In this document: in pieces, positions 30,531 through 64,000 of the stretch
Layout: each line of letters begins with the position of its first letter
Position numbering within the stretch: position 1 is the first letter of the stretch
Source: Eledone cirrhosa
Lineage: Eukaryota
Direction of reading: 5' to 3'
Assembly (NCBI GenBank): GCA_964016885.1
Contig: OZ024747.1
Coordinates: 36,952,001 to 37,016,000, forward strand
DNA: 64,000 bases
The notes under the pieces: model-generated
Databases searched by the model: none
The model's input: only the letters and a program-made list of their open reading frames with translations
What the model was told of the DNA's origin: nothing
Position numbers and translations under genes: made by a program

Positions 30531-31048
30531 TAGAGGGGAAAGACACAGGAGAGTGTGTTTTCATTACAGGAGTTTCGCACCACCAGCGTGAGATGAATAT
30601 AAGCTACTAGAGGCATTGGTAAAACATTAAAATTAAAAGTATAATTTGAAATGAAAAACCATCCTCACCTAAATCACACATGTACAGTTCTCACATTTTA
30701 GTTCTCTCTAGTAGTGCAGACAATATCGGCCTTCCACATGCTGATGACCCACCGGGCCGTACTGGAACCCACTAAAATGGCGAAACATGCTCCTGGTGAA
30801 TGTGTACATGTGTGATTTAGGTGACGATGGTTTTTCATTTCAATTTAAACTTTTAATTTTAATGTTTTACCGATGCCTCTAGTAGCTTATATTCTTCTCA
30901 CGCTGGTGGTTCGAAATTCCTGTAATGAAAAACACACTCTTCTGTGTCCCCTCTATATATTGTATTTTAAAGTGCCCAGGATAACTATTTCCTTTGAGCT
31001 CATTTAATTACAGGATTATACGCGAGTCCTTTGCTCCGTTATCTTTAC
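30531..31048. mobile_element. (TA)n-flanked fold-back element (arms about 30531-30686 and 30802-30955, plus about 90-nt tail)
   Basis: Long imperfect inverted repeat; hammerhead between and overlapping the arms. Confidence 0.85.
30735..30812 (+). ncRNA. Type I hammerhead ribozyme motif
   Basis: cacatg CTGATGA ...stem II... GAAA catg..tgtg TA catgtg; 6-bp stem I; first stem II pair mismatched. Confidence 0.7.
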
Positions 31049-31067
31049 TATATATATATATACATAT

Positions 31068-31300
31068 AAGATAAGTTATCCCGGGTTAATCGGGGGTAAC
31101 CACAGTAAGTAAGGTACTCAATACAGTGCTGTGTATAAATATGTAATATAGAAAAGCTTCTACGGGACTAGAACTGTTTCATTCGTGAGATATCATCAGG
31201 AAGCTGACTGTCCAAGTAAATATTTAGTTGGACAGTCAGCTTCCTGATGATTTCTCACAAATGAAACAGTTCTATTCCTGTAGAAGCTTTTCTATATTAA
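31068..31300. mobile_element. (TA)n-flanked fold-back element (arms 31144-31215 and 31228-31299, tail on left)
   Basis: Inverted repeat with a 12-nt loop and a hammerhead in each arm. Confidence 0.85.
31238..31288 (+). ncRNA. Type I hammerhead ribozyme motif (mirror copy on minus strand at about 31155-31205)
   Basis: agcttc CTGATGA tttctcacaaat GAAA cag-ttctattc-ctg TA gaagct. Confidence 0.8.
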
Positions 31301-32135
31301 ATATATATATACATATATATATGTGTGTGTGTGTTTATTATAATCGTGATGCAACATCAGTGATTAAATGCACTCGTTTAAGTGATTTTTTAGCACGATT
31401 CTTTTAAAGCCTTAGAATAACATTTATTTTTTCATGTTGTTCATGTAGTTCGTGTGGTGACACAGATGACGTACAGTATCTGTAGATATATAAGAATGAA
31501 ATTTACCCAGATTCTAATGATATAATGTTAACGATTGTGTTGCATCTTGTTCTTTGGATTTGCTTTGTCTACAGTTACATGTGTAAAAATCTATAAGGAA
31601 TTATTTCTTTTATTAAACATTTAAGTGACTTCTACAGGTAACCTAATTTCAACCTTTCTGATCATCTCATAAAATTCAGACAATTCATGGTCATTAAATC
31701 TAATCCAGGGCTTTCCCACTCCTGTTAGAAGGAGCCCTCACTCGTTGACCTCCTCCACTTCTGCTTGGTTTTAGTCATGTCAGCGGTATAGCCATACACA
31801 TCTTGCTTGACCAATTGCAGGTTGGTGAGGTTATTTAACCCCTATTTGAGGAGGATGGCCTTTGATTCCGAGGAGTTCATCTACCCTTTCAACAGCTCAT
31901 GTTTTTGTTTCTTTTATTTTTTGTTTTTTGTTTTTTGTTTTCTGTGCTTTTGGTGTTCCACTTACCCTCCTCACAAGACAGTGTCTGGTGAGGAAGCTAG
32001 TTTACTGGCCGACAACTCGAACACGAAGCAACATACATATATTTTGTTAATTTCCCCCTTCACTCACTCTCTCTCTCTCTCTCTCTCTCTCTCTCTCTAT
32101 ATATATATATATATATATATATATATATATATATA

Positions 32136-32348
32136 TTTAATTAGGAAGTGAACAACACAAAATATAACCAAAGGTTACTGGATCCCAGTACCAAAGGTTA
32201 CTGGATCCCATACAATATTAATATTTTCTGGGTTCCAGAATCCTTTGATAATGGAGTAGTTATATTTTGTGTTGTTCACTTCCTAATTAAATAGCTCTGT
32301 TCAATAGATAGAGCACTTGTTTTCCATTGCTTATCCTTCGGAATTACC
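32136..32348. mobile_element. Short fold-back element between (TA)n and (CA)n
   Basis: Arms 32136-32168 and 32259-32291, internal about 23-bp tandem duplication, about 55-nt tail; no hammerhead core seen. Confidence 0.6.
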
Positions 32349-32749
32349 ACACACACACACACACACACACACACACACACACACACACACACACACACAC
32401 ACACATATATAAATATATATATAATTTTTATAGAGATTTAACCAACCAAAGTTGTGCAAATCATAACCCATTCAGTCAGCGGTGATTTTGTGTTGCTTAG
32501 GTCCGAAATAAATTTAAAAAAGTGCTATTAAACAGTTAAAAGTTTGGGTTTGTAAAAATTCTAAGCTATTCACTAGAATTATTTGTATGCTGGATTTTAC
32601 GTTGTATGTAAGTTTAATTTGCTTCTGTTAAATGATATTTTTTATATATGTTTCAGGTTAAATTAAAATTATAAAATAAAGAGTAATACCTAAAGAAAAG
32701 TATAACAGTGCAGTAAAGTATAAAATTGTTAAAAAGTGATTTATTGATA

Positions 32750-62111: not shown

Positions 62112-62486
62112 TATATATATATATATATATATATATATATATATATATATATATATATATATATATATATATATATATATATATATATATATATATATAT
62201 ATATCGTATTCCGCGTCGTGGAGCTGATAACGTTGTTAGGAATCAATGTGTCCTTAAGAAAGGATTGTTATACGCAAAATATTTCGCTGATTGGATTGAA
62301 TCTGATCTATAACATCATGATGTACGCAACGCATGATTATATATGTATATATGTATATATATATATATATATATATATATATATATATATATATATATAT
62401 ATATATATATATATATATATATATATATATATATATATATATATATATATATATATATATATATATATATATATATATATATATAA

Positions 62487-62818
62487 GCATCGGAATTAGA
62501 GTATTCCGCAGTTCACAGTAATAATAATATTAGCTCAAAGAAGAACAGAGAATTTTCAACTGAGCTCGAATACAAATATATTACACAGAGAGAAGTGTGT
62601 TACACAGTGAGATGTGTGTAAATAATTATTACATGTGAGTTTAACCGTTACTGTATGGAAAACAACACCTTACAGGTTAGCAATTAAATAGAAAGAACAC
62701 TAAGTCAGAATCAAATCTCCGAAGTAGAGCTTTAAATTACCAACCTTATAACTATAAAAAGTTATATTACACATCTCACTGTGAAACACACTTCTCTCTG
62801 TGTAATATATTTGTATTT
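62487..62818. mobile_element. (TA)n-flanked fold-back element (arms about 62569-62637 and 62762-62817, tail on left)
   Basis: atacaaatatattacacagagagaagtgtgtt and its reverse complement. Confidence 0.75.
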
Positions 62819-63189
62819 ATATATATATATATATATGTGTGTGTGTGTGTGTGTGTGTGTGTGTGTGTTTATCAATGTAAGCATGTGTGTATGCATGTAT
62901 GTACGTATGAATATATAATATATAAATGTGTGATGGTGAGAGAGAGAGAGAGAGAGAGAGAGAGAGAGAGAGAGAGCGCGCGCGACTGTGTGTGCGTTAT
63001 AATAATAATAATAATATAAATTTCATGTAAACCGCTTAAAATAGAAACTACGAAAATTTCTTGAGCTATAATCGATAAACATGTAAACATATTTCAATGC
63101 AAGGCTAGTGAGCTGACCATTGTGGAAAGTAGCTATATCGCAGATGAAAGGCCTTCTTTGATCATAAGTTTGCTTGATTAATGTTGCTA

Positions 63190-63830
63190 AACATTTAAAA
63201 CAGGGGCATAAATGATAGCGAAGATCATATCATTTGTGATGAAATTCTATATCCTTATATCCACAACCTTCAATATTTTCCTTTTGACAAATATGGATGG
63301 TGGAATATATGGCTATTCGTGGGCATGCTGGTACATCAACACTGTTCTTTTCAGGCTGATTGTCAGCTCAAACTCATCACAGTTTCTCGAGAAGCAGTCC
63401 CTCAGATGTTGAAAGAACTCTTCCATGTGACTAACATCATTACAGTCCTCTGCATAAAGAAGATGACGTATCGTTGCAATATATGTTTTTTGATGCAACA
63501 TGGAATCGTTGGATGTTAAAGAGTTTTCCCGTTGTTCAATAACTTATATATATATATATATGCCAACATCATTGTTGGTGAATGCTTACATATATACATA
63601 CGGTCTAATTTGGGTTGTCTTCCTTGTAACCAAGCTACCGTCATCAGTCTTGCAGAATCCTGTCAGTTCATTCACATACACTTTCGTTCTCACAGCAGTC
63701 ATACAGGGGTGGACAATCCGATCGGTGAAACGCTCCAGTATGGGCTGGTAATTTGTTGTTGAATTAAATTTGTACGGAACTCGTCCTCGGGACTGTGTGC
63801 TCTAATTACTACGGATATAACTTTATAACT
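63190..63830 (-). mobile_element. Decayed RTE-clade LINE reverse-transcriptase fragment
   Basis: HLLYAEDC...FELTISLKRTVLMYQ resembles RTE LLYADDC...FGLTISLKKT. Confidence 0.65.
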
Positions 63831-63904
63831 TGCCCCTTATTTACCAATATATATGTATGTATATATATATATATATATATATATATATATATATATATAT
63901 ATAT

Positions 63905-64000
63905 AGGAAAACGTATGACCCCTTAGGGTCATACTTGTTCCTATTTCCCACTCTACTACCCTAAGTATTGAGTACTCTGGTGCTTTATGGTCCATCTGGT
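63905..64000. mobile_element. Short hairpin element of the same family as 45766-45928 (runs off the window)
   Basis: taggaaaacgtatgaccc-ctta-gggtcatacttgttccta then tttcccactctactaccctaagtattgagtactc. Confidence 0.75.

Follow-up and report, generated by a model that had tools for sequence, protein, structure and literature searches.

The window analysed here, a 64,000-nt stretch of the Eledone cirrhosa genome (contig OZ024747.1, positions 36,952,001 to 37,016,000; 38% G+C), contains 43 (TA)n tracts, 41 of them beyond 29 kb, and among these tracts lie short fold-back elements together with broken copies of coding Penelope-like elements (PLEs). An earlier sequence-only reading of this DNA had pointed out ten such sites, named here E1-E10, as sharing a single layout of arm, turn, inverted arm and one-sided tail. 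We mapped the arms by self-BLAST of the masked window and by arm alignments. Inverted arms were found at all ten sites, ranging from 16 nt (E10) to 292 nt (E5), with 88-100% identity; the loop between them spans 1941 nt in the coding element E6 and 0-283 nt in the short elements. In all ten, one arm stops at a short TA-rich motif, with TA microhomology at its end, and merges into (TA)n; its partner reads through this motif and extends beyond it into a tail of about 25-133 nt, in agreement with the 25-130 nt given in that reading. The individual tails, whose quoted lengths count up to 9 nt of TA microhomology, measure 95 nt (E1), 79 nt (E2), 60 nt (E3), 34 nt (E5), 133 nt (E6), 65 nt (E7), 29 nt (E8) and 83 nt (E9), with at least 47 nt for E4, where the tail is folded back, and at least 59 nt for E10, where it runs off the window. 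The tail of E3 passes into (CA)n rather than (TA)n. A taac or ttac at the tail end, reported before TATA in several elements, was indeed present at four of the nine sites with a visible tail end (E1, E3, E6 and E8).

Several of the short elements carry these features in a simple form. E1 (30533..31048) consists of a no-tail arm at 30533-30686 (sense minus), a 116-nt loop, a second arm at 30803-30953 (sense plus) and a tail to 31048; its arms are 92% identical, and the short arm begins 4 nt 5' of the predicted cleavage site of a type I hammerhead core at 30741-30806 (+). E2 (31070..31294) opens with its tail (31070-31148), followed by arms 31149-31221 and 31222-31294 (93% identical) with a loop of 0 nt; helix II of its two hammerhead cores (31199, minus; 31244, plus) has decayed, and these cores were seen in the motif listing and missed by the descriptors. 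A diverged second copy of the E2 family at 35460-35630, where a tail is followed by the opposite arm and most of the first arm is missing, retains the 3' strand of helix II and the same layout. E3 (32137..32350) has arms at 32137-32171 and 32256-32290 with a 35-nt core, degenerate inside, and a tail of ~60 nt, and E9 (62486..62817) has an 83-nt tail, 49-nt arms at 62569-62617 and 62769-62817 (98% identical) and a 151-nt loop; a hammerhead was found in neither. E8 (61693..62111) is a near-perfect 390-bp palindrome, with arms 61693-61887 and 61888-62082 (99% identical), no loop and a tail to 62111.

The remaining short elements are more elaborate. E4 (45766..45926) and E10 (63906..64000) belong to one family. 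The arms of E4 (45813-45865 and 45873-45926, 89% identical) hold no more of a possible hammerhead than its 3' half (GAAA, a 4-bp helix and UA), and its tail is folded back at a self-complementary 8-mer into a 30-bp perfect palindrome (45766-45795). The inner 35 bp of these arms are identical and the outer 22 positions differ at 6 (p 0.002), an uneven divergence that could possibly reflect hairpin gene conversion or two templates. In E10, the arms are only 16 nt long (63906-63921 and 63926-63941, 14/16 identical), are separated by a 4-nt loop and begin at the position of the putative UA cleavage site of E4; the tail runs straight on, off the window end, and the apices of the two sister copies differ. 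E5 (46040..51947) is composed of 18 identical 311-bp units (sense minus) followed by an inverted 292-bp copy (51656-51947), so that its closing arms, 51361-51652 and 51656-51947, are 100% identical; its tail is about 25-34 nt. E7 (59334..59970) belongs to a very abundant short family, with a tail at 59334-59398, arms at 59399-59543 and 59827-59970 (91% identical) and, between them, a spacer of 283 nt of low-copy DNA (59544..59826).

A pairwise comparison of segments covering 231 pairs gave clear similarity only for E4/E10 (z 26) and the distantly related E7/E8 (z 9), and the description of the sequences as mostly unrelated is thereby upheld. An exact 11-mer is common to the tails of E2 and of E4/E10 (31110-31120, 45778-45788 and 63963-63973; z 3.2 among the 231 pairs); in these otherwise unrelated elements it may be due to chance or may be a candidate protein-binding site. 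Initiator-like motifs (TCAGA, TTAGTT) were seen at apices, by eye only. Three further resemblances did not hold up: between E3 and the 3' untranslated region (UTR) of a Hydra-clade PLE (a 13-mer, z 2.1), between E8 and 63562-63860, and between an eleventh case, E11, described below, and the Hydra copy at 41 kb, at the 3' end of the latter (z 2.9-3.8).

The association with (TA)n was assessed by asking whether the 16-mer beginning at each tract edge recurs in inverted form no more than 2.5 kb away; positions distant from (TA)n served as controls. Such an inverted partner was present at 13 of 65 testable edges versus 16 of 1456 control positions (Fisher p 2e-11). Among the 13 positive edges, three are extra edges inside E5 and E7 and one is a chance-like local palindrome at 60009. 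Many of the control matches are probably accounted for by one short interspersed repeat, presumably of SINE (short interspersed element) type, which occurs in both orientations at 29788-29899, 35874-36058, 38482-38668, 39209-39570, 43681-43781 and 53483-53527. This strict test missed E1 and E4 and revealed an eleventh case absent from the earlier reading, E11 (51990..52546), with arms of ~19 nt (51990-52008 and 52468-52486), a 459-nt interior and a 60-nt tail in the same layout. Judged by eye, its interior may correspond to an extreme PLE C-terminus and 3' UTR, the hidden Markov model (HMM) match being not significant. Alignments of the segments 56022-56356, 63562-63850, 55480-55990 and 43443-43700 showed no fold-back, and therefore not all TA-embedded inserts share the layout. 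A decayed small fold-back lies next to (TA)n at 29412-29530; it has a hammerhead core at 29480 (-), whose mirror counterpart at 29495 (+) is mutated.

The same architecture is found in a coding element. The main body of E6 (56983..59041, minus strand) is a 5'-truncated, broken PLE whose tail-less 3' end lies in (TA)n, and it is followed by an inverted copy (59049..59306, plus strand) composed of a 125-nt arm and a 133-nt tail ending in (TA)n, as had been claimed; the arms, 56983-57107 and 59049-59173, are 95% identical. A 13-nt direct duplication and a 12-bp palindrome are present at the junction of the open reading frame (ORF) and the inverted copy (59036-59060). The broken ORF begins within the reverse transcriptase (RT) at motif A (59041), ahead of which the RWK and DKT positions are lost by truncation, and ends in a GIY-YIG endonuclease; the order is RT (59041-58600), CxCx5C linker (~57873-57844) and endonuclease (57870-57440). 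The endonuclease carries the motif CxxC..E..N..CxH (~57579-57487), with no CxxC inside GIY-YIG and no CCHH. A word-based homolog search with the E6 RT fragment gave no match. HMMER searches with two RT fragments of the window gave 4972 homologs, and motifs were counted in the 25 of at least 650 aa among the best 150: YRDD in 25/25, the CxC..CP linker in 22/25, CxxC..E..N..CxH in 22/25, DKT or DKS in 21/25, RWK or RWR in 13/25, and DKG and DKA in none.

These features bear on the clade of the element, which had been labelled Naiad. According to Craig et al. 2021 (PMC8557442), Hydra PLEs have a C-terminal endonuclease, a CxCx5C linker and CxxC and CxH around E and N, with no CCHH, whereas Naiad elements have an N-terminal endonuclease, DKA, CX2-5CxxC and CCHH fingers; both target (TA)n. 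E6 matches the Hydra clade in these motifs and in its (TA)n insertion, with its homologs carrying RWK/RWR and DKT/DKS at the counts given above. E6 and Naiad are alike in the (TA)n target, the inverted copy, the tail and the lack of a canonical hammerhead, but their domain order is opposite. By motifs and domain order, E6 is thus assigned to the Hydra clade and not to Naiad: its endonuclease lies C-terminal to the RT, it has CxCx5C and no CCHH, and DKA occurs in 0/25 homologs.

Three Hydra copies occur in the window, all on the minus strand (41231-43388, 44460-45608 and 57439-59074). Those at 41 and 44 kb, whose elements span 41231-43408 and 44460-45740, are broken, belong to other families and adjoin (TA)n at their 5' ends; no inverted arms were found for them (41.2-43.4 and 44.5-45.6 kb). 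A further coding PLE, P4 (26711..29108, plus strand), is broken by an internal deletion and ends in (TA)n. It carries GxKF, CX4CxxC and, within GIY-YIG, CxxC, and DKG is present in 46/46 of its homologs; on these motifs it is assigned to the Neptune or Nematis type. Pfam detected GIY-YIG and a weak RVT_1 on P4 and nothing informative on six Hydra fragments. The named homologs of one window element come from octopus and bivalves, at 50-57% identity.

No hammerhead family was matched in an Rfam scan, whose 55 matches all lay below the gathering score and mostly concerned microRNA families (hairpins, microsatellites); descriptor scans of the window were therefore used along with a motif listing. 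They gave 7 matches at a score of at least 10 versus a mean of 0.08 in 12 shuffles. Hammerhead cores are present at five of the ten sites: E1, E2 (decayed helix II), E5, E7 and E8. Complete type I cores were found in E1 (30741+), in every E5 unit (18 minus, and 51787+), in E7 (59864+) and in both arms of E8. The E7 hammerhead (59864-59893, +) has a U3-A8 core, with UA>CA in the left arm, and those of E8 combine the U3-A8 core with GAAA>GCAA in both arms. The descriptor scans found no core at E3, E4, E6, E9 and E10, so the description of the hairpins as ribozyme-bearing applies to half of the sites. E4 and E6 show the 3' half; in E6 this amounts to GAAA, helix III and UA, with no CUGANGA core within 2 mismatches. 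No full-core hammerhead was found in E6 or in the two other Hydra copies of the window, unlike the Hydra hammerheads described as readily detected in PMC8557442. Wherever a core is present, the hammerhead 3' ends point outward, as previously stated; head-to-head polarity is set by a hammerhead or an ORF at six sites and was deduced at four. A further short family, whose hammerheads have a long helix II, has copies at 2378-2512, between two (TA)n tracts, and at 39930-40080 (z 9.9). At 39714-39776 (+) and at 56276-56314 (+) lie lone hammerhead motifs, each with a single change in the core and lacking an inverted partner; the second is inside a 335-nt insert between (TA)n tracts.

How closely are the short elements related to the coding ones? 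The 3' UTR of P4 contains a hammerhead (28889-28918) with a U3-A8 core resembling those of E7 and E8. In the window this is the only likeness in sequence that links the short elements to the pseudo-long terminal repeat (pLTR) region of a coding PLE; it is confined to the hammerhead and weak (z 3.4 among 231 pairs). The proposed tie between the short palindromes and the coding element holds for their shared architecture but not for their sequence: no short element resembles the Hydra copies more than chance would allow. When 21 segments were searched with four HMMs made from homologs of Hydra and of the P4 type, no significant ORF remnant came to light in the short elements (best E 0.055 and 0.063, versus 0.13 in reversed controls).

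Other copies of E6 and E7 were sought in reads covering this single 3-kb stretch, in two contig sets and two sets of restriction-site-associated DNA (RAD) reads; since summed depth is no copy number, depth serves for ranking only. For the Hydra element, depth falls from 107,800 at the 3' end to 11,000-21,000 in the endonuclease and 800-3,500 in the RT, a 5'-truncation gradient like that of 5'-truncated retrotransposons. Short Hydra joints (for example 57078->59139) are supported by 47 and 25 reads with 3 starts each, which suggests that the Hydra family makes short fold-backs too. The ratio of tail depth to the summed depth of both arms is 0.63 and 0.50 in the two RAD runs, and fits the single tail expected per two arms.

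The E7 arms lie much deeper. Their depth amounts to 1.15 million summed in run X1, versus 10.5 for a single contig, and in the RAD runs the E7-arm bin reaches 1132 and 1441 reads, versus 3-12 in two Hydra RT bins. (TA)n is attached at the no-tail end (59395) in 56 contigs. Other copies of the family join their arms without the spacer of the window. Among the 15 best-supported of 45 joints, the departure from the left arm falls at 59534-59545 in 11 and at 59472-59483 in 4, with none between; loose ends at 59543 number 30, 222 and 316. The fillers at the joints, judged from 12 of 27 rows, are unrelated and 0-37 nt long. In this family, then, the 5' boundary is sharp and lies ~40 nt upstream of the hammerhead core; copies also stop in a second zone, at the hammerhead itself, and the apex is not fixed. 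Since joints and fillers vary, the hairpin appears to be made at each insertion and not to be a fixed miniature inverted-repeat transposable element (MITE). Some loose ends past the 5' boundary start similarly in X1 and X8 (16/21 letters by eye; agreement 0.5-0.66), and therefore a longer E7 parent may exist.

A 1730-nt contig of depth 10.5 in run X1 holds the spacer of E7 in its middle part, differing at one position; the spacer is accordingly read as host DNA that was copied from elsewhere. It differs from this presumed donor at 1/287 sites, whereas the E7 arms differ from each other at 4 in ~125 sites outside the A/T tract (p 0.03). Either the spacer was captured later or the arms come from two templates. 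A 35-nt piece of another dispersed repeat (59666-59701), deep in X5, X8 and X9, lies within the spacer and fits ordinary genomic DNA. At six listed sites where the arms of E6 or E7 differ, one window arm departs from the read majority.

Collectively, these data indicate that the fold-backs are, with high probability, insertions of several unrelated endonuclease-bearing PLE families, built at integration. The layout is common to all ten listed sites and to E11, including the coding Hydra PLE, and the PLE-typical U3-A8 hammerhead, also present in the 3' UTR of the coding P4, would count for a PLE origin as well; the PLE origin of the hairpins proposed from the sequence is accordingly supported by layout, by hammerheads and by a coding PLE of the same anatomy. 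We are similarly confident that each insertion consists of two head-to-head complementary DNA (cDNA) copies of the RNA's 3' end, the pLTR, and that the hairpin is a by-product and not the moving unit. Within this scheme, twin priming is somewhat favoured as the main route. The GIY-YIG endonuclease would nick both strands of (TA)n, as the literature suggests, and the RT would start at two places inside the RNA, the short TA-like motif and a site 25-130 nt further 3'; the interval between both starts, whose two end positions are visible in the sequence, would become the tail. The two cDNAs would then grow toward each other and stop at the RNA 5' end, at the hammerhead or randomly, in keeping with the variable stops observed. 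Their ends could be joined directly, through a few filler bases such as those seen, or rarely through captured host DNA, presumably by a repair route. Opposite-strand primings, one per start site, followed by end joining would give arm, turn, inverted arm and tail directly. The template could be a long RNA for E6, a tandem or circular retrozyme RNA for E5 and a short pLTR-sized RNA for the mini-hairpins.

Several points weigh against this interpretation. The read-based evidence for copies comes from one 3-kb stretch, and the joints and fillers described are its best-supported subset (15 of 45 and 12 of 27). The short Hydra joints have just 22 letters on their short side, and the tail-to-arm ratio in the X1 contigs is 0.18, not 0.5. 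At five sites the hammerhead core is missing, and for E3 and E9 the layout is the sole PLE mark; the tails exceed the published 30-40 bp and vary more widely. Furthermore, twin priming is forced for E6 only, E2 and E8, which have no loop, suit snap-back equally well and E10 likewise does not discriminate between the two, and the outer palindrome of E4 requires a template switch.

A reading compatible with such insertions, and differing only in the template, is that the short hairpins are heavily 5'-truncated autonomous PLEs with no separate non-autonomous population; we give it slightly less than an even chance. The continuous truncation gradient of Hydra and its short fold-back joints agree with it, as do the loose ends beyond the E7 boundary, alike in X1 and X8, which indicate that some copies extend upstream, and the hammerhead type of E7 and E8, which is that of the coding P4. 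However, the E7 ends cluster within ~12 nt with no taper (11 of the 15 joints listed; 30, 222 and 316 loose ends at 59543), the depth of the E7 arms stands at 1132 and 1441 versus 3-12 in the Hydra RT bins, and no ORF remnant was detected in any short element. A distinct non-autonomous population, as first proposed, is therefore plausible for the E7 family, given its sharp 5' boundary and very high depth, and for E5.

An unlikely alternative is a single priming followed by snap-back, in which a cDNA primed at the tail end would fold, copy itself up to the internal TA motif and anneal to the other (TA)n end. The 0-4-nt loops or palindromic apices of E2, E5, E8 and E10, the TA microhomology at the end of every no-tail arm, the greater length of the tail-bearing arm in E1 and E5, and the folding of the E4 tail at a self-complementary 8-mer where that of its sister E10 runs straight on, are all in its favour. 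It cannot make E6, in which a 2-kb arm has no tail and a 258-nt arm has one, because neither arm could be copied from the other, and it does not account for the unrelated fillers and the 283-nt host segment between arms of the E7 family. The original suggestion that (TA)n is primed twice or that the cDNA snaps back is therefore supported in its first part, the second failing at E6.

A more speculative idea, to which we assign a rather low probability, is that E7-like families are ~210-nt pLTR-only RNAs with their own start, in effect PLE-dependent SINEs that would rank among the genome's most abundant repeats, and that their minimal hammerheads act less for cleavage than as a clasp. Two RNAs would pair through the palindromic helix III (CCGG, CGCG) and load onto a dimeric RT-endonuclease, and each would prime one strand of the nicked (TA)n, the arms thus coming from two molecules. 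Hints in this direction come from 4 of the 15 listed E7 joints, from E1 and from E10, whose stops lie no more than 8 nt from the hammerhead's cleavage site or its helix III. Another hint, for two RNAs, is the divergence of the spacer (1/287) compared with the arms (4/~125), as expected of a young insertion copied from two differing RNAs; later insertion of the spacer into an old E7 hairpin explains this contrast equally well. Improbable in our view is self-priming on an antisense transcript, after the palindrome model of Arkhipova et al. 2013 (PMC3846280): it was devised for head-to-head PLE junctions and suits the palindromic apices of E2, E5 and E8, but the join points and fillers vary between copies, and later in vitro work with sense RNA explains the tail directly (PMC11167929).

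That the elements are MITEs of a TA-targeting DNA transposon is very improbable. They are short, abundant and TA-flanked, they have inverted repeats, and a DNA-transposase-like ORF lies nearby (32.7-33.8 kb); however, the apex varies among E7-family copies and between E4 and E10, hammerheads are present, a PLE ORF shares the layout, and the tail sets one arm back from the element end in 10/10, and therefore no pair of terminal inverted repeats exists. The view that these are not MITEs is thus sustained, with terminal inverted repeats at both ends in none of the ten and an internal structure that is not uniform. Assembly or library fold-back artefacts, which the 100% identity of the 18 E5 units and their inverted copy might recall, are highly improbable, since the arms of the other sites differ by 1-12%, one window arm departs from the read majority at the six listed E6/E7 sites, and arm-to-arm joints occur in short-read contigs and reads of two studies.

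The layout itself is already documented. Endonuclease-bearing PLE insertions show an inverted 5'-truncated copy, a 30-40-bp one-sided tail and abundant short 3' ends (PMC8557442, Fig. 2), and Arkhipova et al. 2013 (PMC3846280) describe copies arranged head to head, palindromes at the junctions and solo pLTRs with unrelated DNA caught between them. The window elements resemble these insertions in the head-to-head copy, the one-sided tail, the junction palindromes, the pLTR hammerhead, the (TA)n target and the captured host DNA. Unlike those published, they are mostly 100-600 bp without an ORF, with many families in one 35-kb stretch, and their tails span about 25-133 nt versus 30-40 bp. Paired hammerheads are also known: Cervera and de la Pena 2014 (PMC4209133) reported minimal PLE hammerheads as opposite-strand pairs 100-700 bp apart, with a U3-A8 variant, and read them as truncated PLEs. 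The window hammerheads share with these the palindromic helix III and the U3-A8 core; arms, tails and apices are not mapped in the available part of that paper.

E5 has a different counterpart. Tandem non-coding units of 170-400 nt, each with a type I hammerhead, characterize the non-LTR retrozymes (Cervera and de la Pena 2020, PMC7229834; Li et al., bioRxiv 10.64898/2026.07.22.740005), and E5, with its 18 units of 311 nt, has this feature. Li et al. derive such units from PLE pLTRs and count monomers; the inverted terminal copy and tail seen in E5 are not treated in the available part of PMC7229834 or in the main text of the preprint. On its sequence, E5 is best described as a non-LTR retrozyme-type array with PLE-type integration ends. 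As for the mechanism, the anole PLE PAc (Poseidon) cuts and extends both strands of AT-rich DNA in vitro and uses two internal RT start sites whose interval equals the tail; uncleaved hammerhead RNA serves as the template, cleavage being unneeded, and a protein dimer is predicted (Frangieh et al. 2024, PMC11167929). PAc belongs to a different clade, and head-to-head copies were not reconstituted in the part of that work available. The literature searched contained no paper specifically on PLE twin priming or on short PLE families arranged head to head in (TA)n, though Repbase, Dfam or supplements may list these families.

Other repeats surround these elements. Frameshifted DNA-transposase-like ORFs occupy 32740-33849 within 32430-34300 (+), with nothing informative from Pfam on three such ORFs. 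Nested non-LTR retrotransposons lie at 2934-22565 and 36200-39100, several of them with an RT followed by a zinc-knuckle and a restriction-like endonuclease, which we take to be R4/Dong-like; one at 9.4-13 kb carries an ORF of apurinic/apyrimidinic-endonuclease type and is presumably L1/Tx1-like. A ~150-bp duplication (60009-60159 and 60562-61662) has its second copy split by a 950-bp insert (~60578-61531) with a 37-bp minisatellite, whose ends look, we assume, Helentron-associated.

The fold-back observation is therefore real, well above chance and tied to PLEs, but the structure is a known one, represented here by new family members and not by a new system. Its remaining value lies in the density and shortness of the elements, the range of tail lengths, the E5 retrozyme with PLE ends, the sharp-ended ~210-nt E7 family and the two-template idea. 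For annotation, it means that a large fraction of the short TA-flanked palindromes in such genomes are retro-elements, which pipelines could file as MITEs or microRNA hairpins. The PLE-type ends of the E5 array support the idea that PLEs mobilise retrozymes. The way in which inverted copies arise in PLEs is still called undefined in the literature; E6 excludes simple snap-back for one insertion, and a natural data set on this process exists in the thousands of short copies whose ends and apex can be read.

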